This document shows positions 7 to 52,254 of a stretch of DNA of 64,000 bases, in pieces. A program made the translations under genes and the position numbers. Position 1 is the first letter of the stretch, and each line of letters starts with the position of its first letter. The notes under the pieces are model-generated. The model saw only the letters and a list, made by a program, of their open reading frames with translations. It did not search any database and was not told the DNA's origin. The DNA comes from Torpedo marmorata (Eukaryota), in contig OZ360236.1 in assembly GCA_977017645.1 (NCBI GenBank), forward strand, positions 67,828,001 through 67,892,000, read 5' to 3'.

Positions 7-1536
7 ATGCACGCGGTGGATGAGGAGATACCTTTTCAGGTAGAGAGCGACGCATCGGACTTCGCGCTGGCTGCTACCCTCAACCAGGCGGGAAGGCCGG
101 TGGCGTTTTTCTCACGGACCCTTCAAGGCCCCGAAATTCGGCACTCCGCGGTAGAGAAAGAAGCCCAGGCCATAGTGGAAGCAATCAGGCACTGGAGGCA
201 CTATCTCGCCGGCAAGCATTTTACCCTGCTGACCGACCAACGCTCGGTGGCATTTATGTTCAACAACCAGCAGCGGGGTAAGATCAAAAATGATAAGATC
301 ATGAGGTGGAGAATAGAACTCTCCACCTACAATTACAACATCCTTTACCGGCCCGGGAAGCTCAATGAGCCCTCCGATGCTCTATCCCGGGGATCATGCG
401 CCAGCGCGCAGATCGACCGATTACATGCCCTACACGACGCCCTCTGCCACCCAGGGATTACCAGGCTCTTTCACTTTGTGAAGTCACAGAACCTGCCATA
501 CTCCCTGGAAGAGGTCAGGACATTGATCAGAGGTTGCCGGGTTTGCGCGGAGTGCAAACCTCAGTTCTACCGCCCCGACAGGGCACAGCTGATCAAAGCC
601 ACTCGCCCTTTTGAACGTCTCAGTATTGACTTCAAGGGGCCCCTTCCCTCCACGAACCGCAACGTGTACTTCTTAAACATTATCGATGAGTACTCGCGGT
701 TCCCCTTTGCCATCCCCTGCCCCGACACTTCGGCTACCTCAACCATAAAAGCTCTCCACCAGGTATTCGCGCTGTTTGGTTTCCCAAACTACATACATAG
801 CGACCGGGGAGCAGCTTTTATGAGTGAGGAGCTGCGACGGTACCTGCAGGCCCGAGGCATCGCCACTAGCAGGACCACCGGATACAACCCCCGGGGGAAT
901 GGACAGGTGGAAAGGGAGAACGCTACTGTATGGAAGGCCACGCTCTTGGCTCTCAAGTCCAAGGGATGGCCGGTTTCCCGCTGGCAGGAGGTTCTCCCCG
1001 AAGCCCTCCACTCTATCCGGTCCCTGCTGTGCACATCCACCAACGCAACCCCTCATGAACGATTTTTTTCCTTCCCCAGGAAGTCGACCACCGGAACCGC
1101 CCTACCTGCCTGGCTGACGTCCCCGGGACCAGTGCTGCTCCGCAATCACCTTCGGAGCAGCAAATATGAGCCGGCAGTCCAGAGGGTGCAGTTGGCGCAC
1201 GCCAACCCACAATATGCGTACGTGGTCTTCCCTGATGGGCGAGAGGACACTGTCTCGATTCGGGATCTGGCGCCCGCTGGGGCACCGGCAGAACATTCCG
1301 ACGGGCAAGACCACCTGCTGCAAAACCCCTCTAATTACCACCTGCTGCAAAACCCCTCTAATTCCCCACCCAGTGTGCCAGACCCAGCCCCCTCGCCGGG
1401 ACCACAGACATTCCAAGAGGCCAGGCAGGAGGCGACTGCACAGACAACCCTACCATCTCCCCCATCACCACAACCCGCCCCGCCACTACGCAGGTCACAG
1501 CGGCAAATTCGACCGCCGGATCGCCTTGACCTGTAA
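7..1536 (+). CDS. Ty3/Gypsy pol, 3' part (RNase H + integrase); element runs off the left edge of the window
   Basis: RNase H motifs (ESDASD, EKEAQA, LLTDQRS); integrase HHCC (HDALCH...CRVC) and D-D-E (SIDFKG, HSDRG, VERE); no chromodomain; close paralog of 16211-19984. Confidence 0.95.
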   Translation: MHAVDEEIPFQVESDASDFALAATLNQAGRPVAFFSRTLQGPEIRHSAVEKEAQAIVEAIRHWRHYLAGKHFTLLTDQRSVAFMFNNQQRGKIKNDKIMRWRIELSTYNYNILYRPGKLNEPSDALSRGSCASAQIDRLHALHDALCHPGITRLFHFVKSQNLPYSLEEVRTLIRGCRVCAECKPQFYRPDRAQLIKATRPFERLSIDFKGPLPSTNRNVYFLNIIDEYSRFPFAIPCPDTSATSTIKALHQVFALFGFPNYIHSDRGAAFMSEELRRYLQARGIATSRTTGYNPRGNGQVERENATVWKATLLALKSKGWPVSRWQEVLPEALHSIRSLLCTSTNATPHERFFSFPRKSTTGTALPAWLTSPGPVLLRNHLRSSKYEPAVQRVQLAHANPQYAYVVFPDGREDTVSIRDLAPAGAPAEHSDGQDHLLQNPSNYHLLQNPSNSPPSVPDPAPSPGPQTFQEARQEATAQTTLPSPPSPQPAPPLRRSQRQIRPPDRLDL

Positions 1537-8800: not shown

Positions 8801-9594
8801 TATATAATCACAAAAATCCATTCTTTTTAATAAAGAGGAATTAAATCTCCACCTATATATAGTTTTTTCTTTTTCTGGAATTATACAAGACATTAATAAA
8901 GGCGAATGATCAGAAATTATTCTTGCTTTATAACGTGCTTGTGTTACCCTATCTTGAACTTGTGAGGACAATAAAAACATATCTATCCTAGAATATGAAT
9001 CATGTCTAAAAGAATAAAAAGAATAATCTTTTTCTCTAGGGTTCAACTTTCTCCAAATATCTATCAAGTTTAATTCTTTCTTCAAAATAAGAATTCTTTT
9101 AGCAATTTTAGATTTAACAACTGATTTTGATGTTTTATCCATTATCGGATCTAAACAAAATTAAAATCCCCACCAATTAAAATATTATCATTAGCTTCTG
9201 ACAAATGCATAAAAGAATCTTGAATAAATTGTTCATCTTCCATATTTGGTACATATATATTCATAAGTGTCCACATTTCTGAATATATCTGACAATGTAT
9301 TAAAACATATCTACCTACCACATCTATAACCACAGATTGTATTTTAAAAGGTAACTTTTTATTAACTAATATAGCAACTCCTCTTGCTTTAGAATTAAAT
9401 TAAGAAGCAACCACTTGGCCAACCCAATCTCTCTTCAACTTCTGATGTTCTGAATCTGTCAAATGTGACTCTTGTAAAAAAGCTATATCTACATTTAACT
9501 TTTTAATATACGCTAAAGTTTTCTTCCTTTTAATCGGGTTATTTAGCCCATTTATATTAATACTTACTACATTTATTGTTTTACTATCCATCAT
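5813..9594 (-). pseudogene. L1-A ORF2 (APE endonuclease + reverse transcriptase + C-terminal Cys/His motif), frameshifted
   Basis: SININGL, FLQESH, GGDFN, SRIDMF, SDHSP; RPISLLNVDYK, DAEKAFD, QGCPLSP, FADD; CFRC...HSTWFC; split over about 7 ORFs. Confidence 0.93.
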
Positions 9595-9874
9595 TACTAA
9601 ATCTTAATAACTCTCTCTCCATCAGATCCACCAGCACCCTCCTCCACATTCGTAATCTATTTGACATCTACTTAAAAAGAAAAAGAAAGAAAAAGAAAAT
9701 AAAAAAGAAACAAAACCCCACTGTATACAATACTGGCAAAATTACCCCAGTATTACCCCCCTCCATTACTCGGGTAGTGGCCCTCGCCACTAAGGTGGTA
9801 TGCGGCTAGGAAGGAGAAAACAAAAAGTTCACCCCCCCCCAAACAGATTTTACATAACATTTATTATCATATCT

Positions 9875-11297
9875 TCATTTAGCTTCTTCAAGGTCCTTAT
9901 GAACTTGGTCTTCACCAATCTCGATCTCGGCCTCATCCTCTTTTCCTGAAGTACTTGGCAAAGAAACTTGCGACGGTGAAATATCTTGAACTTGGTGATG
10001 TTCCATCAAATCTTGATCTTTCTTCAAATACGGAAGAGAATTTGCATGTTGGAGCGCTTGTTGACAATCTGTAAAAAAACAAGATCGATTCCCTGTAGAC
10101 TGAACCTTCAAAACCACAGGATATCTAAACGAAAACTTATACCCCTTATTCCAAAAAATCGCTTTTGCTGGATTAAATTCCTTTCGTTTATTAACTATAA
10201 CTGAACTCAAATCATGATAAAATAAAACTCTATTCCCCTGAACCAACAATGGACCATTCTGAGACTTAGCGTTTTGAATAGCTAATTTCAATACCTTCTC
10301 TTTATCCGGATATCGAAGACATTTAACTAAAACTGAACGTGGTCTTTGACCAACATACGGTTTCCCCCTACCAACTCTATGTGCTCTCTCTAACTCCAGT
10401 CCATACTTAAAATTATCAATACCCAGAGCATCTGGAATCCATTTTTGAAAGAATTCAGTCGTATCATACCCTTCGAAATTTTCAGGTAATCCCACAATTT
10501 TGATATTGTTCCTCCGGCTCTGATTGTCCAATACATCCAGCTTTTGTAAAAGTTCATTTCTTTGCTGCTCCCAAACTGTAAATGAATCTTCTACTTTATC
10601 AACTCTATCTTTATAATCCACCATTTCTTCATAATTTTCTTTAACCTCTTTTTCAATTTCTTGAACTTTCACTTTTACTGTATTCACAGTATTTGTCTGT
10701 CTTCTCATATCTTGCTTAATATCTTTCATTTCTTCTTCAATTCCATTAAGTCTAAGTTCCAAACGATATTCCATCGTTGACATCCTCTTTGTCATGTTAT
10801 CAATAGCCTTAAGTATTTGTTGAGCTACCGATATTTCATTCTCTTCTCCACTTGAATCTTCAGTCTCTCCCTCCATTTCTCCCATTTCTTCTTCCATTAT
10901 TCCTTTCTTCTCTATTTTTATCTTCTGAATCTGATGAAATTTCAAGTCCCACAACATATTGTAATGATTGTGGAACGTTTCCTTTGCCGTCAGCCTTATC
11001 TGACAGCTCCCGTTGTCTATCGCGCATGCGCACCGTTTCGCGCATGCGCGGTTGCTCAGTTGAAATTTGTAGTTTTGTAGTCTTCCTTCGAGCACCGGCG
11101 CCATCTTCCCCAGCTCCCCGGGATGGCAGCGCCGGAGCTTCAGTCGCTCTAGGCGCCCTCGTCCGAGTAGTTCTAGGAGGGAGAGAAACTTGAACCTGAG
11201 GCTCCATCAAGCAGGTAGGCCGATCTTCTTGTTGAAATAAACTTTGTTGAAGCATTACTTTCCTTGCCTTTTGTTCTTTCGTTTTTCTTGTAGCCAT
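9875..11297 (-). pseudogene. L1-A ORF1 (coiled coil + RRM/CTD), one frameshift near 10900
   Basis: MATRKTK start at 11297; coiled-coil heptads; DNQSRRNNIKIVGLPE, LERAHR, RYPVVLKV motifs typical of L1 ORF1p. Confidence 0.88.
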
Positions 11298-11352: not shown

Positions 11353-11585
11353 TGTGGTAAACCACTGTATATGTGTTGTGAGCTAGGGATAGGTTTGGAC
11401 ATGCCCTGCTGACTGTCCCGGTGACTCCTCCTACAATCCCCTTGAATAAAGGCCATTGTGCCACAACTCCTCCCCCAGTCCGGGACAGATCAGCAGCTCG
11501 AATGTAGCTCCATTCTATAACCAATAAAAGCCTTTCAGTTCATATACAACTTCCAGTCTTTTGGGAGTCATTGATAGGTGTATCA
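11353..11585 (+). repeat. 5' LTR of element 2 (233 bp)
   Basis: TGT...TCA; differs from the 3' LTR by 3 substitutions and one 12-bp indel. Confidence 0.95.
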
Positions 11586-11607
11586 ATTTTATTGGTTATA
11601 CTGTCAA

Positions 11608-11687
11608 ATGGAGAGCGTCCTGAGACCGGACAAGCTGGATATCGATCCGCTGGCACCAGACGCCAGTAACGCTTTCGAACTCTGGCT
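11608..11687 (+). pseudogene. True N-terminus of element 2 gag (MESVLRPDKLDIDPLAPDASNAFELWL), cut off by the L1-B insertion
   Basis: ATG 22 nt after the LTR; joins in frame with 16177 onward once L1-B and one TSD copy are removed. Confidence 0.88.
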
Positions 11688-14600
11688 TTAAAAAAAAAAA
11701 AAATTATTTAAATTTTTAAATCACAAAATACATAAATCAAAATATATAACTTTCAAAATAAATGTGATATATATTTCCTCCCCCCATACCCACCCTCCCT
11801 TCCCAAACCCCCCATCCCCACTATTCTAAAAAATAATAATAAAAAAAAAGTATAGTAAAAAAGAAAGAAGAAAAAGATAGATTAATAGTAAGGGGAGAAC
11901 CATCTACAAACTAATTTTATCATGGAGGTTAAACTCGCCAGTAGACCTGATATCTAGAGATTTCAAATCATTAAACCCATAACTCTCATATATGGGCTCC
12001 AAATTTTCAAAAATGAATGATACTTATTACGTAAATTATAAGTAATCTTTTCCAGTGGAATACACGAACGGAGTTCTGCATGCCACCTATCTAAACTTAA
12101 ATCTAAATCTGATTTCCAAGTAATAGCAATGCATTTTTTTGAAACAGCTAAAGCAATTCGTAAAAATTCTACCTGATACATATTCAATCTATTCCTAATA
12201 CTAAATTTTCTAATATCTCCAAATAAAAATAACATAGGATCCATTGGAAACATAACATTAAAAACTCTATCTAAAAAATTCTTAACTTTCAACCAAAAAT
12301 CTTGAATTTTTGAACATAACCATGTAGAGTGAACAAAAGAACCTACTTCACTCTTACATCTAAAACACAAATCTGATAATGTCGGATTAAATTTCTTTAA
12401 TTTTTTTGGTGTTAAATATAATTGATGGAAAAAATTATATTGTACTAATCTATATCTAACATTAATAACTTTAGTCATACTTAATTTACATAAATCTTTC
12501 CAATGATTTTCAGCTATATTAACATTTAAATCTAATTCCCATTTTAATCTTGATTTATGTAATCCTACTTTAGGCATTTTTCTCTGAAATAATTTATACA
12601 TTTGAGAAATAAACTTATTGACATTTGCTTTAGTTATTAATAATTCTAACTCATTTTGTCTTGGTGCAATCAAATCATCCTCTAATTTCTCAATCAAAAA
12701 AGCTTTAACTTGATAATAAGCTAACCATGTATTATCTAATACATTAAATTTTTCCTTCAATCTTTGAAACGTAACAAATCTTCCAGCCTCAAAACAATCT
12801 TTAAAATTCTTAATTCCTTTTTGAAACCATAATTTCAATAACTGATTATTAATAGTAAATGGTAAAAGTGGATTTTGATATAATGGCATATTTAAAGAAA
12901 TTAACCCTTTTCCACCTATTTCTTTATCTACCTGTGTCCATATTTCCAACAAAAGTTTAATAATCGGAGAATTTTTCTTTTTTACTGATAATAATTTAGA
13001 GTTCCACTTATAAATAATATCCTCTTTATAATTTTCTCCTATATTATTTAATTCTATATTAATCCAAGCAGAAGATTTAGCTAAATCAAAAAATTCATTA
13101 ACAAATTTTAATTGAGCTGCTTTATAATAATATTGAAAATTAGGAAGCTGAAATCCTCCCATCTCATAATTCCATGTTAATTTATCCATACTTACTCTTG
13201 CTAACTTCCCTTTCCATAAAAATTTCCTAATAATAAACTTTAAATCTTTGAAAAAAATTTTTGGAATTCCGAAAGGAATTGATTGAAAAAGATATTGAAT
13301 TCTTGGAAAAATATTCATCTTAATACAATTTACTCTTCCCATTAAAGTTATAGGCAAATCTTTCCAATTTTCCAAATCTTTCTTTATTTTCATAAATAAA
13401 GGTACATAATTTAATTTATACAAATTTTCTAATTTTGTATCCACTTTAACTCCCAAATATTTGATTCCTTCTTTTGCCCACTTAAATTCCGTAACCTCTC
13501 TACATCTAGTATAATCACCTTGAGATAAAGCCATTATCTCACTTTTATCTGAATTAATTTTATAACCAGATATTTCACCATATTCTGTTAACATAATAGC
13601 TAGTTGTTGAAGTGATGTAATAGATTTCGTCATATATATTAATACATCATCTGCCAACAAACTAATCTTATGTTCTTCCATACCTACTTTAATCCCTACT
13701 ATATTAGGGTCTATTCTAATCAATTCAGCCAAGGGTTCTATTGCCAAAACAAATAGGGCTGGTGACAGGGGACATCCCTGCCTCGTAGAACGCGTTAAAG
13801 GAAATTTTGGCGATATTTGTCAATTCGTAATTACTTTAGCTGTAGGTTCTCTATATATAGTTTTAATCCAATTTATAAAAGTATTCCCAAAACCAAATTT
13901 CTCTAACACCTTAAATAAAAAATTCCATTCTAATCTGTCAAAAGCCTTTTCTGCATCTAGCGTTACAACCAATGGTAAATCCTGTTTCTTTTTATATAAA
14001 TTAATTAAATTTATTAATCTAGCTATATTATCTTTTGAATATCTATTTTTAATAAAGCCAGCTTGATCTGGATGTATCAAATTTGGTAAATATTTAGCTA
14101 TTCTATTAGCCAAAATTTTTGCCATTATTTTATAGTCTACATTTAACAAAGAAATAGGTCTATATGACTCAGTTTTTAATACATCTCTATCTTTCTTTGG
14201 TATAACTGTGATAATAGCATTCAAAAATGTTTTCGGTAATAAATGGGTTTCCGTAATTTGATTCAATACTTCCATATATGGAGGTATTAATAAATCTTTA
14301 AATTCCTTATAAAATTCTACTGGAAATCCATCATCACCAGGGGATTTACCACTTTTCAACGTCGAAAGAACCTCACTAACTTCTCTCATCGTAAAAGGTA
14401 AATCCAAAGAATTTTTATTCTGAATATTCAATTTAGGTAAAGTAATTTTAGATAGAAATCTATTAATCTTCAAATCATCATGATCAACCTGAGATCTGTA
14501 TAAATTCTGATAATAATCTTTAAAAGATTCATTTATTTCTTGGGGTTTATAAGTTATTTCTCCAGTATTTTTTTTCTTTATAGCATTTATAGTTTTAGAA

Positions 14601-16165
14601 ATTTGCTCTTTTTTCAATTGCCATGCTAAAACCTTATGAGCTTTTTCCCCTAATTCATAATATCTTTGCTTCATTCCTTCAATTAATTTTTCCGTTTTAT
14701 AAGTTTGTAATAAATTTTAATGTAATTTCCTCCTTATTAAACGATTTCTCTTACGAATTGATTTATTTCTCTGTAAATCTTTTTCCATAAGCTCAATCTC
14801 CTTCTCTAATTTTTCTGCTTCTTTCAAATAATCTTTCTTAATTTTTACCGAATAGCTTATTATCAAACCTCTTAAATAAGCTTTTAAAGTTTCCCAAATT
14901 ATAAATTTATCATTAATCGATTGACCATTTATCCTCAAAAATTCCTGAATTTCTCTTCTTATATATTCACAAAAATCTTTCCTTTTCAATAAAGAAGGAT
15001 CAAATCTCCAATTAAATATAGTTTTCTCTTTTTCTGGAATTATACAAGTCATTAGCAAAGGCGAATGGTCTGAAATTATTCTCGCTTTATAAGATACTTG
15101 TGATATTCTATCTTGAATTTGTGAAGATAATAAAAATAAATCTATCCTAGAATATGAATCATGTCTAAAAGAATAAAATGAATAATCTTTCTCTCTAGGA
15201 TTCAATTTTCTCCAGATATCTATTAAATTCATATCTTTCATCAAACTAATAATTCTTTTAACTATTTTGGGTCTAACAGACGATCTAGAGGTCCTATCCA
15301 TTATTGAATCTAAACAACAATTGAAATCTCCCCCAATTAAAATATTTTCCTTAGCATCTGATAAATGTAAAAATGCATCTTGAATAAATTGTTCATCATC
15401 TGGATTTGAAACATATACATTCATAAGAGTCCAAAATTCTGAATAAATCTGACAATATACCAAAACATATCTTCCTGCCACATCTGTCACTACCGATTGT
15501 ATCTTAAAAGGTAGTTTTTTATTAACTAAAATTGCTACCCCTCTAGCTTTAGAATTAAATGTAGAAGCTACCACATGTCCAACCCAATCTCTTTTTAATT
15601 TTTGATGTTCAACCTCTGTTAAATGGGTTTCTTGTAAAAAAAGCTATTTCTACTTTCAACTTTTTCATATATGCCAAAGTCCTTTTTCTCTTAATTGGGT
15701 CATTAAGCCCATTTATATTAATACTTACTAAATTTATACTTCTAGAATCCACCATAATCAAATTGTAACCTTTCTCTGTCCATCAAATCCACTAGCGTTC
15801 CCCTCCTAAATTGCACTCTACATATTCTCCCCTCAAGTAAAGCAAAAGATAGACATACAAAAAAGAAAAATTCCCTTGAAAAAAACACTGGTATTTCTAT
15901 CCCAGTGTTACCCCCCTCCATTGTTCGAGAAGCAGCTCTCGCCGCTAAGGTGGTGATTGGTTCGGAAGAAGTGCCAATGAGTCCACCTCCCCCCAACAGA
16001 TCAAAATAAATTTATACAGCATAAATTCAATTAACTCCTCCCAAAACCAGTTCTTCTTGTTCTTCTTCAACTTGAACTAGAATATTTCCTTCTCTTGGTG
16101 AAGCAGATGGCAAAACAACTTGTCCTTGTTGAATTTCTTGATCTTGCTCTTGCTGCCGCGGAGTA
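11688..16165 (-). mobile_element. 5'-truncated L1 (L1-B) inserted in Gypsy gag
   Basis: 11-bp TSD GAACTCTGGCT (11677-11687 / 16166-16176); contains the ORF1 3' end, spacer, ORF2 and 3' UTR. Confidence 0.93.
11963..15755 (-). pseudogene. L1-B ORF2, few disruptions
   Basis: APE, RT and CFRC...HSTWLC motifs in ORFs 14717-15574, 13820-14674 and 11963-13747; ATG at 15755. Confidence 0.93.
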
Positions 16166-16685
16166 GAACTCTGGCTAATCTGTTTCGAGTAGTTTCTAAG
16201 GACGATCAAAGTGGAAGGCGAAGACGGAAAACGCATGGTCCTCGTCTCTAGGGTAAGCCCCCGAGTTTACTCGACGATCCAAGATTTTCAGACTTACGAG
16301 GACGCCATGGATGCCTTAAAACGGCTGTATATAATGCCTGTGAACTCAGTATACGCGAGGCACAGGCTAACGACGCGGCAGCAGCGGCCCGGGGAGTCGA
16401 TCACAGAATTCGTACGGGACATACAGTCACTCGTGCGGGCGTGCGACTGCAGGGCGCTGACGGCGGAGCACCATGCAGAGCTGTTGGGGAGAGACACTTT
16501 CGTCACGGGGATCAGGTCAGTATATGTGCGCCAGCGGCTGCTGGAGCATGCTGACCTGACCTTTCGTTCTGCCGTTCAAATGGCCCATACGCTGGAGGCC
16601 GCGCTGCGGAACTCGGACGCTATGCAAGCGCATGACCTCCAGCAGGCCCCGTGGATGGCACTGACTCCCAACCCTGCCAGCGATT

Positions 16686-16767
16686 CGACTACCGCCGCCG
16701 TCAGCCGCGACCCGACTACCGCCGCCGTCAGCCGCGACCCGACTACCGCCGCCGCCAGCCGTGAGCC
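16686..16767 (+). repeat. 27-bp x3 in-frame tandem repeat in gag (TTAAVSRDP)
   Basis: CGACTACCGCCGCCGTCAGCCGCGACC repeated. Confidence 0.9.
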
Positions 16768-19700
16768 CGAGAAATGTTATTTCTGCGGGCTCGAGAAGCA
16801 CCCTCGAAAACGCTGCCCGGCCCGAGACGCGACCTGCTCCAGCTGTGGCAAGAAAGGCCACTTCGTGAAGGCCTGCCGCTCAAAGCCGCGAGCGGGTCCG
16901 AGCAGCGCCGCGTGCGGGATTCAGGGGCGGCCATCTTACCTTTCATCACTTCCGGCGTCCTACCCACCCGCAGTTGCCAACACGTGCGAAGAATGGAGGC
17001 GGCCATCTTGGACCTCGGCACTTCCGGCGCCGCCATCTTACTGCTCCGATGCCAACACATGCGACCCACGGAGGCGGCCATCTTCTTCAACTCCGATGTC
17101 GGATCAAGATTACGAACCTACACTGGCGTCAGTGACGCTCGACCAGAGTGCACCCCATCAACTATCAAGATCGATGATGGACATCCTGGTTGGAGGACAC
17201 AGAACAAACTGCCTGTTCGACACAGGCAGTACAGAGAGTTTCATTCACCCCGACACGGTACTGCGATGTGGCCTCTCAACATTGCCGGTAAGCCAAAGGG
17301 TTGCCATGGCTTCCGGGTCGCACACAACAGACATCCGGGGGGGTTGTGTAGCGACGATAGTAGTACAGGGCACGGAATATCGGGACTTCTCACTACTAGT
17401 CATGCCTCGACTGTGTGCGCCTGTACTACTGGGACTCGATTTCCAGAGTCACCTACAGAGCGTTACCATGCAATATGACGGGCCCCTTCCAGCGATTACC
17501 GTTGGCAACCACCAGTACCTTAAAAACACATCCCAGACTACCTGCGGCCTCTCCACCCTCAAGATCTCACCCCCATCGCTATTTGCCAACCTGACCCCTG
17601 ACTGTAAACCAGTGGCGACCAAGAGCAGGCGATACAGCGCAGGGGACAGGACATTTATCAAGTCGGAGGTGAGGCGATTGCTTGGGGAAGGGATCATTGA
17701 ACCAAGCACAAGTCCCTGGAGGGCCCAGGTAGTCGTAGTAAAGAATGGGAGCAAAAATAGGATGGTGGTGGATTATAGCCAGACGATTAACAGGTTCACG
17801 CAGCTGGACGCATACCCCCTACCACGCATTGCGGATATGGTGAACCAGATAGCGCAATACAAGCTATTTTCTACCATAGACCTCAAATCGGCCTACCACC
17901 AGCTCCCTATTCGCCGGGAGGACCGCGCTTACACTGCCTTTGAGGTGGACGGCAGGCTTTATCATTTCCTGCGCGTCCCCTTTGGGGTCACTAATGGGGT
18001 GTCCGTCTTCCAGAGGGAGATGGACAGGATAGTGGACCAGTTCGATCTCAAAGCCACTTTCCCGTACCTGGACGACATCACTATCTGTGGTCACGATCGC
18101 CAGGACCACGATAACAACCTCCGGAAGTTCCTCCAGGCGGCCAAAGCACTTAACCTCACGTACAATAAGGATAAGTGCGTGTTCGGGACCACCCGACTCG
18201 CCATCCTGGGGTGTGTCGTGGAGAACGGTGTCATCAGCCCCGACCCTGACCGCATGCGCCCCCTGTTGGAACTACCGCTTCCCCACACCCTCAAAGCCCT
18301 CAAAAGGTGCTTGGGCTTCTTTTCCTACTACGCCCAATGGGTCCCCAATTACGCAGATAAGGCCCGCCCCCTTGTCAAGTCCACCACGTTTACCCTTGCA
18401 ACGGAGGCACATGAGGCTTTCAGCCTTATAAAAGGGGACATTGCTAGAGCTGCAATGCATGCGGTGGACGAGTCCACTCCCTTCCAGGTAGAGAGTGACG
18501 CGTCCGACTTCGCACTGGCTGCTACCCTCAACCAGGCGGGAAGACCGGTGGCGTTCTTCTCCCGTACCCTCCAAGGCCCCGAGATTCGGCACTCCGCGGT
18601 GGAGAAAGAGGCCCAGGCCATAGTGGAAGCTATTCGGCGCTGGAGGCACTATCTCGCCGGCAAAAGGTTTACTCTGCTGACTGACCAACGCTCAGTAACG
18701 TTTATGTTTAACAATCAGCAGCGGGGTAAAATCAAAAATGATAAAATCATGAGGTGGATAATCGAACTCTCCACCTACAACTACGATATACTGTACCGGC
18801 CCGGGAAGCTCAATGAGCCCTCCAATGCTCTATCCCGAGGGACGTGCGCTAGCGCACAGATCGACCGGCTGTACGCCCTCCACTGTGACCTCTGCCACCC
18901 CGGAGTTACCAGGCTGTTCCATTTTGTGAAGGCCCATTACCTACCCTACTCCCTAGAGGAGGTCAGGACAATGACCAGCAGCTGCCAGGTCTGCGCGGAG
19001 TGCAAACCGCAATTCTATCGCCCTGACAAGGCACAGCTGGTCAAGGCCACCCGCCCCTTCGAGCGACTCAGCATCGACTTCAAGGGTCCCCTCCCCTCCA
19101 CCGACCGCAACGTGTACTTTCTGAATGTGATTGACGAGTACTCGCGGTTCCCCTTTGCTATTCCCTGCCCCGATACCTCGGCCATATCCGTCATTCAAGC
19201 TCTTCGCAAAATATTTACCTTATTTGGTTTCCCCAGCTATATACATAGCGACTGGGGATCCGCGTTTATGAGTGAAAAGCTGCGACAATACCTGCTGGCC
19301 AGGGGTATTGTCACTAGCAGGACCACGGCCTACAATCCACGGGGTAACGGACAAGTGGAAAGGGAGAACACCACTGTCTGGAAGGCCACGCTCTTAGCCC
19401 TCAAGTCTAAGGGATTGCCAGTCTCCCGCTGGCAAGAAGTCCTCCCCGAGGCCCTCCATTCTATTCGGTCCCTGCTGTGTACTTCCACTAATGCGACTCC
19501 TCACGAAAGACTCTTTTCCTTCCCTAGGAAGTCGACCACCGGGACCACCCTACCTGCATGGCTGACGTCCACAGGACCGGTGCTGCTCCGCAAGCACCTT
19601 AGGAGTAATAAATATGCACCGATGGTCGAGAGGGTCCAGTTAGCCCATGCCAACCCCCAGTACGCCTACGTGGTCTTCCCTGTTGGGCGGGAAGACACCG

Positions 19701-19862
19701 TCTCCATACGGGACCTAGCGCCCGCAGGAGCGCTGGAAACTGCCCTCGAACACCCCATTGTTACAATTACCCACCCCAACACGACACCGCACCCTCCAAC
19801 ACTTTCACTGTTACCGGCCGTTCCGGTACCACAAATCAGGCAGGAGGCAGCTCTGCCGCCTC

Positions 19863-19936
19863 CCCCATCACCATAGGTACTATCGCCCACCCCATCACCA
19901 CAGGTACTATCGCCCACCCCATCACCACAAGTACTG
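19863..19936 (+). repeat. 27-bp x~3 in-frame tandem repeat in the integrase tail
   Basis: CCCCATCACCACAGGTACTATCGCCCA repeated; first copy has CAG>TAG. Confidence 0.85.
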
Positions 19937-20078
19937 CGCAGATCGCAACGTCGGACTCGACCGCCTGATCGGCTTGATCTGTAACTGTAATATATCTTTG
20001 TACATAGTTCATATTTCTGTAACGTATTATTAGTGTTCACTTCACCCCGCTGGACTCTTTATAAAATGGAGGGGTGAA

Positions 20079-20299
20079 TGTGGTAAACCACTGTATATGT
20101 GTTGTGGGCTAGGGATAGGTTTGGACATGTCCCGGTGACTCCTCCCACAATCCCCTTGAATAAAGGCCATTGTGCCACAACTCCTCCCCCAGTCCGTGAC
20201 AGATCAGCAGCTCGAATGTAGCTCCATTCTATAACCAATAAAAGCCTTTCAGTTCATATACAACTTCCAGTCTTTTGGGAGTCATTGATAGGTGTATCA
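20079..20299 (+). repeat. 3' LTR of element 2 (221 bp)
   Basis: Direct repeat of 11353-11585, preceded by the PPT. Confidence 0.95.
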
Positions 20300-20419
20300 A
20301 TCTTATAAACAATTTTTGATTATATCTGTGGGGAGAGGTGTATTTCCACATCTCTCACCTACGCCATCAAACCACGCCCCCCATACTTTGAGCTTCTGTT
20401 CGCTTTTCATTTTAAGTCT

Positions 20420-24267: not shown

Positions 24268-27200
24268 CTATTTATTTATTTATTTATTTAAAAAATATTT
24301 TTATTAGTATCATAACATTCTATACAATAAAATAGAATCAAATATATCCAAAAGTAACATATTATAGTCATCATCTCATCAAGTTGTAATTAACCTTTGA
24401 TACATTTTATTATATTAACTGCAGAAAATGATTTATCATAAAAAAGAATAAAGATAAGAAAAACAAAGGAAAAAAAATAATATAATAAACCGTAACATTT
24501 TAATACAAAGCAAAGCTAGCGTAACTAATACTACACCTAATACCTACGCCTAAAAAAAAATGACCTCACAACCCCAAACCTCTAACATTGCACTGATATG
24601 CATTTGAGTTCCAGTCCAATTTAGAAAAAGAGAAAAAAAAAGTACTGTAACCTTTATAAATTCTGATAATAATCCATAAATGAACCACAAACTTTTCTAA
24701 AATTAAGATTCATAGTTAGACTGGAACATCTAATTTTCTCTAAAGTTAAGCAGGTCATCATGTTCTGTAGCCATTGATTATAGGTGGGCGGAATATTCTC
24801 CTTCCAGTTCAACAAAATCAACCTTCTGGCCATCAGAGAAGCAAATGCAATGACATGTTTATGAATTTTAGAAAGCTCATTATTATTTGGATCATTAATT
24901 CCAAAAATAACCATATAGGGATTTGGATCTATCTGAGTATTATGAACTAACGAAAGCGTACAAAAAATTTTATTCCAAAATCGGTTCAATTTTGGACACG
25001 ACCATTACAAATGAAACAAAGTTCCCTCATAGATATTACACCTATCACAGGTTGAAGAAACATTAGGGAAAAACTTTGTTAATTGTGTCTTTGAATAATG
25101 AACTCTGTGAACTACTTTAAATTGAATAAGAGTATGTCTAGCACAAAGAGAGGATATGTGAACGAGATCCAAAATAGAAGTCCATAAAGTGGGAGAAAAC
25201 TGTGCTTGAAAATCTCATTCCCACGCTTCTGTCACCTTGTCTAAGTGAATTACCGTAGAATCCAATAGTATCCCATAGAACACAGATAACGGTTTGTTTG
25301 TATCCGGTTTGGTATTAAAAATCGTTTTAATGGTCTCTAACTCCAAGTCTTGTGGGAATCTCAAACGTTGTGAATTTAGAAAGTTCCTTAACTGAAAATA
25401 TCTAAAAATGTGATGTCTAGGAATATTAAACTTAGCTATTAACTTTTCAAAGGAGGCCAAATTATAATCAATATAAGCATCCTTAAAAGTACAAATACCT
25501 GCATCATTCCAAACTCAAAATCCCCTATCTTGAACAGTAGGTATAAAAAAATAATTAAATAAAATTGGGCTTCGTAATAAGAAATTATGCCTACAATTTG
25601 ATTTCCTAAATTGAAACCATATTCTTAAAGTATGTTTAACTACCATGTTATTACTAAATTTAGAATCCCTAAAAGGTAAAGGAGCACCAAGAATGGACAA
25701 TAAGGAATGTTGCTTAATAGAGTTAACCTCTCCTTTTAAATTTTTACACAGTAATACATACATGAACAATATAGATTATTAACTTCAGAAAAAAATCTTT
25801 TATAATATTGCATTACAGTGTATTCTACCCCTTCCCTTATCCCACCAAACCGTTGTTAACATTTTTCAAAAGTTCAAATTTAAATTTTTACTTAGTGTTT
25901 CTAATCCTACCCTCTACCCATTCCCTCCCCTTAAATTCCCTCCCCTTCCTTGAATTCCCTCCCCGTTTCTCGAATATCTTTATAATGTATCCACATATTA
26001 ATGTATCTAATATTCGCAGCCCAATAATACTTCCTAAAATTAGGAAGAGCCATGACTCCTTGTTTTTTCAGAATTCTGCAAAAAAGCTTTCCTGACTCGA
26101 GGGTGTTTTTTATCCCAAATATAGGACGATATCAAAGATTCTAATTGATCCAAGAAAGACTTAGGAATAAAGATTAGTAATGCTTGAAAAATATATAAAA
26201 TTTAGGTAAAACATTCATTTTAATTATATTGATACGTCCAATTAGTGTAATCATTAAAGGAGACCATCTTGTAAACAATTTTTTAACTTGATTTAATACC
26301 TGAAGAAAGTTTTCTTTAAACAAATTAACAAATTTAGTAGTGATATTAATACCTAAATAAGTAAAGTAGTTCTTAACTAATTTAAGTGGTACATCAAACC
26401 ATAAAACATGGGGTGATTTCAAAACAAACATTTCACTTTTAGCTACCGATAAATTTAATTTATAACCAGATAAGCTACCAAATCGAGTAAGTAAATGTAA
26501 AATCACTGGAATTGAATGTTCAGGATCTGAAATATATAATAATAAGTCATCAGCGTAAAGAGATACCTTGTGTTCAACACTAGCTCTAAAAATACCTGAA
26601 ATATCATCAGATTGTTTAAAAGCCAAAGCTAAAGGTTCTAAAGCCATATCAAATAATAATGGACTTAGTGGGCATCTTTGTTTTGTACCCGAAATATTTT
26701 AAAAGGTTTAGATTTCATTGAATTGGTAATAATCATCGCAGTAGGTGACAAATAGATTAATTTGATCCACCTAATAAAATTTGGGCCAAATTTAAATTTC
26801 TCTAATACATTAAAAAGATATTGCCACTCAACACGATCAAAAGCCTTCTCAGCATCTAAAGAGATAACACTTTCAAATGGAGATTGACCAGGTGTATAAA
26901 CTATATTCAACAATCTACGAACATTAAATTGTAAATATGTTCCCTTAATAAAACCTGACTGATCCTCAGAGATAATAGTAGGGATAATATTTTACAGTCT
27001 ACGAGGTAAGATTTTTGAAAGTATCTTAGCATCCACATTAAGCAAAGAAATAAGGGCGATAAGATGCGCATTCAGACGGATCTTTATTCTTTTTAAGGAT
27101 AAGAGAAATAGAGGCTTCGTAAAATGTAGAAGGTAACTTCCCACACCTCATAGCTTCAGATAAAGTGATCTCTAAACGTGGTACCAATAAATCAACAAAA

Positions 27201-46827: not shown

Positions 46828-49248
46828 TTTTTAATTTTTAAAATATTTTATTAAAAATTTTAAATCACAGAATACATAATATAAAATGCAAAATTATCAA
46901 AATACATGTGATACATTTTCACCCCCCCTCCCTCCCCTCCCTAACCCTCCCGAAAAGAAAGAAAGAAAGAAAAATAGAAAAAAAAATAGAGTAAGGAGAA
47001 TGTCAAACTAAAAAAGAACAACTAAATAATCTGAATTTATTGTGGAAGATAGGTTCGCCAGTCAGATCTGATATCCAGAGATCTTCAAATCTTTAAACCA
47101 ACAGTTTTTATATATGGGCTCCATATTTTCAAAAAGAAATGATTTTTATTACGTAAATTATAAGTAATTTTTTCAAGTGGTATGGCTGAACGAAGTTCTG
47201 CATGCCATCTTTCTAACCCTAAATCTACATCAGATTTCCAAGTAATAGCAATGCATTTCTTAGAAACAGCTAAAGCAATTCGCAAAAATTCTATTTGATA
47301 CATATTTAATTTCATCTTAATACTAATTCTTTTAATATCTCCAAACAAAAATATCATAGGGTCCATTAGAAGTGTAATACTTAATACTTTATCTAAATTT
47401 TTTTAAACTTTCAACCAAAAATCATATATCTTTGGGCAGAACCATGTAGAATGTACAAAAGAACCTTCCTCTCTATCACATCTAAAACATAAACCAGATA
47501 ATGTCGGATTAAATTTCTTTAATTTTTTAGGTGTTAAATATAATTGATGAAAAAAATTATATTTCACTAATCTATATCTAACGTTAATAATCTTCATCAT
47601 ACTTAGTTTGCATAATTCTTTCCAATGTTCTTCATCTATTGTTACATTCAAATCTGATTCACATTTTAATCTTGATTTATGAATTCCTAATTTCAGCATT
47701 TTTCTCTGTAACAATCTATACATTTGAGAAATAAATTTATTTACACCTCCATTAGTAACTAATAATTCCAGTTCACTTTTTCTTGGTAAAGTCAAACTGT
47801 AACCCAGCTTTTCAACTAAAAATGCTCTGATTTGATAATAAGCAAAAAGTGTATTGTTTAATACATTAAACTTCTCTTTCATTCTTTGAAAAGTAATAAA
47901 TTTACTAGCTTCAAAACAATCATTTACTTTCTTAATTCCCTTTTGGAACCAAATCTTAAATAATTGATTTTGAACAGTAAATGGAATAAGTTTATTTTGA
48001 TATAAAGGCATATTTTGAGAAATTAACCCTTTCCCTCCTATCTCCCTATCCACTCTATTCCATATTTCTAACAAATGTTTAAAAATAGGAGAATTTTTGC
48101 CTCTTATTAATAATAATTTAGAATTCCATTTATAAATAACTTCTTATTTCAAATCTTCTCCTATATTATTTAATTCTATTCTAATCCAAGCAGAAGATTT
48201 TCCTAAATCAAACATTTCATTAACAAATTTTAATTGAGCTGCTTTATAATAATTTTGAAAATTAGGAAGTTGTAAACCACCCATTTCATAATTACAAGTT
48301 AATTTCTCCATACCTACTCTCGCCAACTTTCCTTTCCACAAAAGCTTCTTAATAATTAAATTTAAATCTTTAAAGAATTTCGAAGGAATTTCATAAGGAA
48401 TTGATTGAAAAAGATATTGAATTCTTGGAAAAACATTAATTTTAATACAATTTACCCTTCCTATTAAAGTTATAGGTAAATCCTTCCAACTTTCTAAATC
48501 TTTTTTAATTTTCATAAATAATGGTAAATAATTTAATTTATATAAATTAGCTAATTTTGTATCAATCTTTATTCCCAAATATTTAATTCCTTCCTTTGAC
48601 CATTTAAATTGTGTAATTTCTTTACATTTACTGTAATCCCCTTGTGTCAAAGCCATAATTTCACTTTTATCAGAATTAATTTTATAACCAGATATTTCCC
48701 CGTATTCTTTCAATAAAACATTCAATTGTATTAAAGAAGTAATAGATTTTGTCATATAAATCAATACATCATTTGCAAATAAACTAATTTTATGCTCTTT
48801 TCTTCCAACTTTAATACCTGCAATCTTAATATCTTGTCTAATTAATTCTGCTGAAGGTTCTATTGCTAAAATAAACAATGCTGGCGACAAAGGACATCCT
48901 TGTCTAGTTGACCTCGTCAAAGAAAACTTTGAAGAAATTTGTCCATTTGTCACCACTCTAGCGGAAGGTTCTTTATATATAGTTTTAATCCGATTAATAA
49001 AAGTAGTTCCAAAACCAAATTTCCCCAATACTTTAAATAAATAATTCCACTCTAATCTATCAAAAGCCTTTTCAGCATCTAATGTTAATACTAGTGCTAA
49101 TTCCTCTTTCTTTTGTGCCACATTTATTAAACTAATTAATCTAGCTATATTATCTTTTGAATATCTATTCTTAAAAAAGCCAGCTTGATCTACATGGATT
49201 AAATAAGGTAAATATTTAGCCACTCTATTTGCTAAAATTTTTGCCATT
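46828..49248 (-). mobile_element. 5'-truncated L1 of the L1-A subfamily
   Basis: RT to C-terminus almost identical to 5813-7980; same 3' UTR. Confidence 0.92.
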
Positions 49249-49249
49249 A

Positions 49250-49560
49250 CCGTTGGTTCCGCACGGGCTTTGAACGGCCCGTTGAGGGAGCCGACGGTGG
49301 TTTTATTTAAGATCCTGCGACCGTGGGGTCTGCACGCAAGATGGCAGCGCCTTTTAACCGGCTGCAGCCACGAGGGGCTGCAGACTCCGGGGAAGCGGAG
49401 GAGTGGAGCAGGGCACCAGAGGACGGGAAGATCACCCCCCGTCTGAGAAGGAGAAGCGGAGGAGACGACCCACAGGAAGGAGACCACGGTGGCGGACCAG
49501 TGAGGGGCTCTGAGGCTGAAGGAACAGTGCATGCGGCGGGCTGCTGGTGACATGAGGCAC
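49250..49560 (+). mobile_element. Partial copy of the GC-rich element at 42340-43175
   Basis: GGGCTTTGAACGGCCC...GGAGCCGACGG...AAGATGGCAGCGCC shared. Confidence 0.8.
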
Positions 49561-51710: not shown

Positions 51711-52018
51711 TAAGGAGTCTGAGGAGATTTGGCATGTCATTGGATACTCCATCGAACTTCCACAGGTGCACTGTGGAAGGTATACTGACTGGTTGCATCA
51801 CAGCCTGGTTTGGCAATACAAGTGCCCAGGAACGCAGAAGGTAGCAAACATAGCCGGGTCCATCACAGGCTCTGACTTCCCATCCACTGCAGACATCCAT
51901 GTGAGGCACTGCCTCAAAAAGGCAGCAAACATCATAAAAGACCCCCATCATCCTGGTCACAACTTCTTATCACTGGTACCTTTGGGCAGAAGGAATAGAA
52001 GCTTGAATTTGAAGCACC

Positions 52019-52254
52019 AATAGCCTGAATACGACTGGGATTGTCTGATCTTTGAAGCTAAGCAGGCACAGGACTGGTCAGTACTTGGAGGGGAGACCAC
52101 CTAGGAACACCAGGTGCTGTAGGTTTCTGTGAGGGGCGCTGGACAAAGTAGCAATTCTCTGTCTGCCTTACGGTGGACAAAAATTTTAAAAAATCATGTA
52201 TGTTACATTCTAAATGTAATATTACGTGACAATAATGGAACCTTTACCTTTACC
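52019..52254 (+). mobile_element. 5S rRNA-derived SINE-like insertion with a Rex1-type tail
   Basis: 52019-52127 aligns to 5S rRNA (GAAGCTAAGCAGG box A, GTACTTGGA-GGGAGACC box C, GGTGCTGTAGG); followed by a tail ending GTGACAATAA...(CCTTTA)n. Confidence 0.82.

Follow-up and report, generated by a model that had tools for sequence, protein, structure and literature searches.

The window analysed here, the whole stretch of 64,000 nucleotides, sits in the 6.2-Gb genome of Torpedo marmorata and harbours two retrotransposon copies, designated A and B. These are LINEs of the L1 clade, characterized by an L1-type ORF1 and by an ORF2 with an APE endonuclease and a reverse transcriptase. ORF1 of copy A matches human L1 ORF1p structures (E 8e-7), and the top match of the ORF2 endonuclease is human L1 ORF2p (E 1e-37); an RVT_1 domain is also present. 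An LTR retrotransposon divides the 5' end of copy A from its body, and once this insertion is allowed for copy A is full length, its 5' end lying at 20324-20382. The insertions at 11353-20299 are nested: a 5'-truncated copy B (~11700-16165) resides inside the LTR element, which in turn resides inside the 5' UTR of copy A. The LTR element also bears a long ORF at 16235-19876. The principal features are the following, the transcription start of copy A being placed by inference from the element boundary:

20324..20382, minus strand: 5' terminus of copy A, comprising G-run, micro-ORF and pyrimidine-rich pairing strand; 96% identity to the corresponding end of the full-length A-type locus L356
20359..20367, minus strand: micro-ORF AUG-GCG-UAG
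11353..20299, strand not assigned: LTR retrotransposon in the 5' UTR of copy A, with a 5-bp duplication (AAGAT), recognizable junctions and LTRs that are 93% identical
9875..11297, minus strand: ORF1 of copy A, with a frameshift close to its 5' end; this region would be looped out by the helix described below
9592..9594, minus strand: ORF2 start codon of copy A
15753-15755, minus strand: ORF2 AUG of copy B

Elsewhere the window contains a decayed 5S rRNA-like piece at 52007-52125 (plus strand), and a second integrase-like ORF together with more L1 ORF2 fragments at 7-1536 (plus strand), 26174-26647 (minus strand) and 47403-49553 (minus strand).

The spacer between ORF1 and ORF2 carries a conserved block in both copies. 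Across the genome, a pattern built on this block occurs 12,305 times, compared with 412 for a reversed control, and each of the 30 loci fetched with it has a match to copy A, either in the endonuclease or in ORF1. To the group that contains A and B, referred to as ABC, a spacer-independent search with an endonuclease motif added the lineages named D, K, E, M, I and N. Variants of the stretch also occur in contigs of three sequencing runs, which are uninformative on transcription. On the sense strand the block comprises two hairpins, the second of which begins just inside a reading frame, ORF-X:

9776..9791, minus strand: hairpin 1 of copy A
9729..9754, minus strand: hairpin 2 of copy A, beginning 13 nt into ORF-X
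15931..15946, minus strand: hairpin 1 of copy B
15884..15909, minus strand: hairpin 2 of copy B

Both hairpins had been proposed in the original prediction and are present at these positions, and the compensatory changes between A and B, the G-U pair that forms on the sense strand only and the GNRA loop in B were likewise borne out. Folding z-scores are −2.3 (A) and −3.8 (B) on the sense strand and −0.8 (A) and −2.5 (B) on the antisense strand. For a structure-blind alignment, 34 copies (19 ABC and 15 D/K/E) were picked by hand from lineages ABC, D, K and E, whose endonucleases are 62–73% identical to the lineage-E sequence. Across all 34 copies both hairpins share one register, with 89.9% of cells paired as against 26–54% in slid controls, and 12 of the 16 hairpin pairs display double-sided changes. 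A lack of significant covariation in a multi-subfamily alignment would have counted against the original prediction; at the level of the helix the hairpins exceed 400 of 400 tree-based nulls: mean covariation is 10.9 and 11.4, with null maxima of 6.3 and 5.9. At the level of single pairs, only 1 of 3003 reaches E<0.05, and none does so within clades. A covariance model of the hairpins detects weak matches in the N lineage (E 0.007–0.03, filters off), no match at the block in the M and I lineages and no spacer match among 80 metagenome loci. UGGGA, the TURBS motif, occurs within hairpin 2 of some subfamilies only. These structures, and the open frame discussed below, are very probably real.

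The pseudoknot with which the original prediction completed this fold has not fared as well. Its pairings are 94% paired in 37 ABC copies yet show 0 double changes in 15 pairs, the same as in shuffles, and helices of this type are absent from the D/K/E alignment. A search of Rfam, which had been suggested as a check, yielded no match over the block in the window, nor in 16 loci at E<=5. Covariance models of HDV-like, twister, hammerhead, pistol and hatchet ribozymes, of xrRNA and of the dicistrovirus IRES are unmatched at the block, and HDV and twister cores are absent from it by eye, as judged against their consensus. A known ribozyme or IRES family therefore finds no support in these sequence comparisons. 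Readings of the block as HDV, twister, H/ACA, k-loop or 5' splice site were dropped on inspection against the respective consensus. Several local folds of its 5' half (pseudoknot, local hairpin, three-way junction and extra linker helices) were also considered and rejected, being 83–97% compatible with the copies but having only 0–2 double changes. That a local IRES or pseudoknot in the spacer recruits ribosomes to ORF2, as first proposed, would agree with the covarying hairpins, with the compatibility of the local pairings in ABC and with the IRESs that programs predicted in long L1 spacers (PMC5381506, in its text). It is nevertheless very improbable, given the lack of any double change in the pseudoknot pairs, the silence of Rfam and the covariation of the same strands with a different partner, the 5' end of the element.

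This second pairing involves the 5' half of the block, whose strands are those of the proposed local pseudoknot:

9793..9848, minus strand: 5' half of the block in copy A, the 3' strand of the predicted long-range helix
15947..16001, minus strand: 5' half of the block in copy B

In copy A, 20324-20382 is predicted to pair with 9793-9848 through 44 pairs. As copy B is 5'-truncated at ~16165, its partner strand is missing from the window; in the full-length B-type locus L358 the block is predicted to pair with the locus's own 5' end. Among 67 loci with a block and long upstream DNA, 39 have kept a recognizable 5' end. Duplexes of 30–49 pairs are predicted between the first 62 nt from the micro-ORF AUG and the 5' half of the block, looping out 1.2–2.3 kb and extending to within a few bases of the 5' end. 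The block of the same locus outscores every other-lineage block in 32 of these 39 loci and every ORF1 window in 34, whereas 5' ends of the M and N lineages show no preference for their own block. For an analysis of compensatory change the UTR and the block were aligned separately in 13 ABC and 12 D/K copies, with L357, L266, L269, L379 and L392 omitted as near-duplicate or damaged and lineage E outside the analysis. Canonical pairs make up 93% of the 34 inter-strand pairs in ABC and 97.5% of the 33 in D/K. Double changes affect 12/34 and 9/33 pairs, respectively, counts that lean high because the same alignments had served to predict the pairs; tree nulls have means of 3.6 and 3.5 and reach the observed values in 0/300 and 1/300 cases. 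The test of this helix covers one genome, and in a blind scan for duplexes, 20 loci belonging to other L1 clades of the same genome gave output swamped by G-rich noise.

The block and the 5' end form an imperfect inverted repeat, and the 5' end contains CACGTG or a GC-box-like word. In principle the block could be the 5' promoter copied as DNA in inverted orientation, acting as an antisense promoter with no RNA helix involved. This is extremely improbable, as the differences between the strands favour G-U over A-C on the sense strand by 36:6 in ABC and 56:3 in D/K, an excess pointing to the sense RNA. The core of the original reading, a structured cis-element for ORF2 translation, survives: the best interpretation is still an RNA structure, conserved on the sense strand, that bears on ORF2 translation. 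The notion of a self-contained local fold does not survive, since pairing with the element's 5' end accounts better for the pseudoknot strands.

The 5' strand of the predicted helix harbours a minimal reading frame, AUG-codon-stop, located ~15 nt from the element boundary. A profile of the downstream sequence only was used to find it, giving 42 hits, 9 of which failed the G-run test. The micro-ORF is intact in 32 of the 33 copies with an intact G-run, which therefore possess the 5'-proximal short uORF expected of a pararetrovirus-type shunt. Its middle codon is variable and its stop is UAG or UGA; longer micro-ORFs are found in the M and N lineages. The following AUG is usually that of ORF1, ~107–120 nt further on. 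In ABC, D/K and E, predicted pairing begins 1–6 nt before the micro-ORF stop, and in copy A the strong inner helix starts 18 nt past it.

Pairing that spans the micro-ORF and reaches nearly to the 5' end is what would be expected if the helix were a translation-off or RNP switch, hiding the cap-proximal 60 nt, marking full-length RNA for packaging or shielding its 5' end while ORF2 is reached in some other way. ORF1p is an RNA chaperone and might anneal such a helix. Hiding, however, has no need of an intact AUG-codon-stop, and this is kept with a variable middle codon; a switch of this kind is improbable.

The spacer is not non-coding: it contains a conserved hidden frame, missed in the original prediction, with hairpins flanking its start. 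In both window copies the sequence linking the two hairpins is AUG GAG GGN GGU (the MEGG slot), and the frame that it opens continues to just beyond the ORF2 AUG:

9584..9766, minus strand: ORF-X of copy A, 60 codons, with a premature stop at codon 33; its terminal stop lies 8 nt past the first ORF2 AUG
15742..15921, minus strand: ORF-X of copy B, intact, 59 codons; stop 11 nt past the ORF2 AUG

Generally, ORF-X begins at the block, ends at the ORF2 AUG and has a length of 57–90 codons. The frame is open in 76 of 96 ABC copies (1 and 1 for the other two frames), in 17 of 31 D/K copies (0 and 1) and in 5 of 8 M copies (1 and 0). The A and B subfamilies are over-sampled in the ABC counts; per sequence cluster, the frame is open in 23/30 (ABC) and 10/17 (D/K). 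Its phase relative to ORF2 is retained in 78 of 99 ABC copies despite length variation over the U tract. In intact copies the stop falls at +5 to +11 (ABC, M) or −9 to −12 (D) relative to the ORF2 AUG. A stop at or near the downstream AUG, the arrangement on which stop-restart coupling of the SART1 and calicivirus type depends, is thus in place, although a stop in the −1 frame soon after the AUG could also come from ORF2's own codons. The start is less uniform: an AUG occupies the MEGG slot in 16 of the 34 alignment rows, an in-frame AUG is found 12 codons upstream in D and K and 9 in E, an upstream AUG that is out of frame is seen in several D copies, and in-frame AUGs are missing over the 95 nt scanned in 4 of 14 ABC and 2 of 16 D/K full-length copies.

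Frames of this kind also occur outside this genome. After motif and AUG had been located, sufficient upstream DNA ascertained and duplicates removed, 80 metagenome loci yielded 30 distinct and distant L1/Tx1-like families, 26 of which show an open frame, 50 codons or longer, that terminates at the ORF2 start. The corresponding figures are 5/30 on the antisense strand and 6/30 after a 300-nt shift, and the frame is significant in 23/30 families (P<0.05 versus dinucleotide shuffles). Most of these loci (L276-L355) show hydrophobic open frames of ~50–120 codons up to the ORF2 start, one or two of which may be ORF1 tails.

The product of ORF-X could be a functional membrane micropeptide, an idea that is compatible with the shunt proposed below. 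Its mean best 19-residue hydropathy is 2.25 (1.69 and 1.76 in the other frames), and in 18 intact hand-chosen copies dN/dS is 0.65, with an ABC interval (0.48–0.89) below 1. The same ratio is ten times that of the ORF2 start (0.06), however, and rises to 0.93 in 8 D copies; U-rich DNA gives hydrophobic peptides in all frames, no Pfam family scores above cut-off, and peptides of different lineages are unlike one another past a few N-terminal residues. A functional micropeptide is distinctly unlikely on these grounds. Judging by substitution patterns, the ORF-X protein is weakly constrained, with openness kept far more than protein, and the peptide is likely to be secondary.

Four features are shown in the sequence: complementary strands that have undergone compensatory changes, two covarying hairpins, and the preservation of both the micro-ORF and the open frame. 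A role of the structure and the frame in ORF2 translation is quite likely. More specifically, the block appears to combine the downstream half of the predicted long-range helix with the head of the hidden frame, and the two together probably (at a probability of about 0.55) constitute a ribosome shunt to ORF2 that bypasses ORF1. The helix would form in part of the RNA pool and loop out ORF1; where it stays open, ribosomes would scan on to ORF1. A cap-loaded ribosome would translate the two-codon micro-ORF, melt the weaker outer pairs and come to stand against the strong inner helix. Upon termination the 40S subunit would cross to the freed 3' strand, where hairpins 11–13 nt after start codons would aid initiation on ORF-X, also at near-cognate codons. 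Translation would then run through the U-rich spacer, terminate no more than ~12 nt from the ORF2 AUG and begin anew there. The anatomy fits a shunt followed by stop-restart: a micro-ORF sits at the base of a helix that places the 5' end beside a downstream start, hairpins follow the start codons and the open frame finishes at the ORF2 AUG.

The helix might instead do another job, for instance damping ORF1 translation, while ribosomes that terminate on ORF1 start again, first on ORF-X and next on ORF2. The ORF1 stop lies only 104–150 nt (ABC) or 220–290 nt (D) upstream of the MEGG slot, the open frame also exists in the metagenome families, beyond the genome in which the helix was examined, and termination-reinitiation is the model for mammalian L1 (in the relevant part of PMC5972666). 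Such a relay would leave unexplained why a micro-ORF sits at the base of the helix opposite the landing strand, and reinitiation after a 400-codon ORF is termed improbable for long spacers in a passage of PMC3894237; on balance it is unlikely.

Shunts that employ a uORF and a stem are known from CaMV, RTBV, RTSV and prototype foamy virus, as outlined in the relevant section of PMC5902531. The same section notes the effect on initiation of hairpins at ~14 nt and non-AUG starts at landing sites. The L1 arrangement is similar in that a 5'-proximal micro-ORF is associated with a stable helix, predicted in L1 and covarying, which would connect the take-off site with the landing site, and with a downstream start that is possibly non-AUG. 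Foamy virus is analogous in a further respect: its uORF lies inside the stem's ascending arm (PMC5902531, same section), and the L1 micro-ORF also lies within the predicted helix. In contrast to the pararetroviral shunts, the loop in L1 is a whole coding ORF of 1.2–2.3 kb and the first target would be a bridge frame. The micro-ORF, moreover, is situated inside the predicted helix and does not end a few nucleotides before a basal helix, as happens 7–8 nt upstream in RTBV and RTSV; nor is there a UA-rich unstructured landing site, hairpin 1 directly adjoining a helix whose landing strand is not UA-rich. Two defining pararetroviral features thus fail, so that the system is shunt-like by anatomy yet excluded from that family. 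Other observations also speak against a shunt. Pairing so near the 5' end could block ribosome loading, the ORF-X start is non-uniform and some subfamilies are without an in-frame AUG, and at 57–90 codons ORF-X exceeds the reinitiation limit of ~50 codons quoted in PMC5902531.

Duck hepatitis B virus, which shunts to Pol according to the same part of PMC5902531, likewise has a bicistronic RNA in which the RT ORF is reached from near the 5' end past a structural ORF. It differs from L1 in its undefined take-off site, and the account of this virus given there describes neither a long-range helix nor a bridge frame. Termination-reinitiation in SART1 and mammalian L1 offers another parallel in the form of a stop near the ORF2 AUG (PMC5972666 and PMC3894237, in the passages on these elements). 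Here the stop belongs to a third frame and not to ORF1, and the upstream structure pairs with the 5' end. Among L1 elements, the spacers of fish, frogs and lizards surveyed by Boissinot and Sookdeo (2016, PMC5381506) resemble those of the window in being long and U-rich with G-rich stretches. The text of this vertebrate survey reports no shared structure, proposes IRESs on the basis of prediction and describes no hidden frame or 5' UTR pairing; its supplement S4 holds the spacer sequences.

ORF2 translation in long-spacer LINEs is called an open question in PMC3894237, in the passage concerned. In the literature covered, which leaves most subscription journals and Repbase outside, there is no report of a helix between 5' end and spacer, of a shunt or of a third frame in L1 spacers. 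A broader proposal is put forward tentatively, at slightly less than even odds and from sequence comparison: a vertebrate L1 clade may reach its reverse transcriptase by a three-step route undescribed for LINEs, comprising a micro-ORF, a shunt over a helix with the whole of ORF1 in its loop and a bridge frame leading to ORF2. Annealing driven by ORF1p could then switch synthesis from ORF1 to ORF2, and long-spacer L1/Tx1 elements may in general possess the bridge frame as a third ORF that has been overlooked. The hidden frame also implies that these 'intergenic' spacers are mis-annotated as non-coding. The cis elements are now defined and each has natural compensatory variants, which renders them testable in one reporter series.

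Spacers of other L1 clades display structures of their own. Upstream of ORF2 in L168, L173, L175 and the metagenome loci L276/L278 there is a different hairpin, nearly identical between genome and metagenome contig. A third clade (L108, L125, L143, L144, L154 and L178) has its own spacer hairpin followed by a G tract, and 65–72-codon frames end near the ORF2 start in 5 of these 6 loci. Sense-strand G tracts with quadruplex-like runs are present in the spacers of most L1 clades seen.
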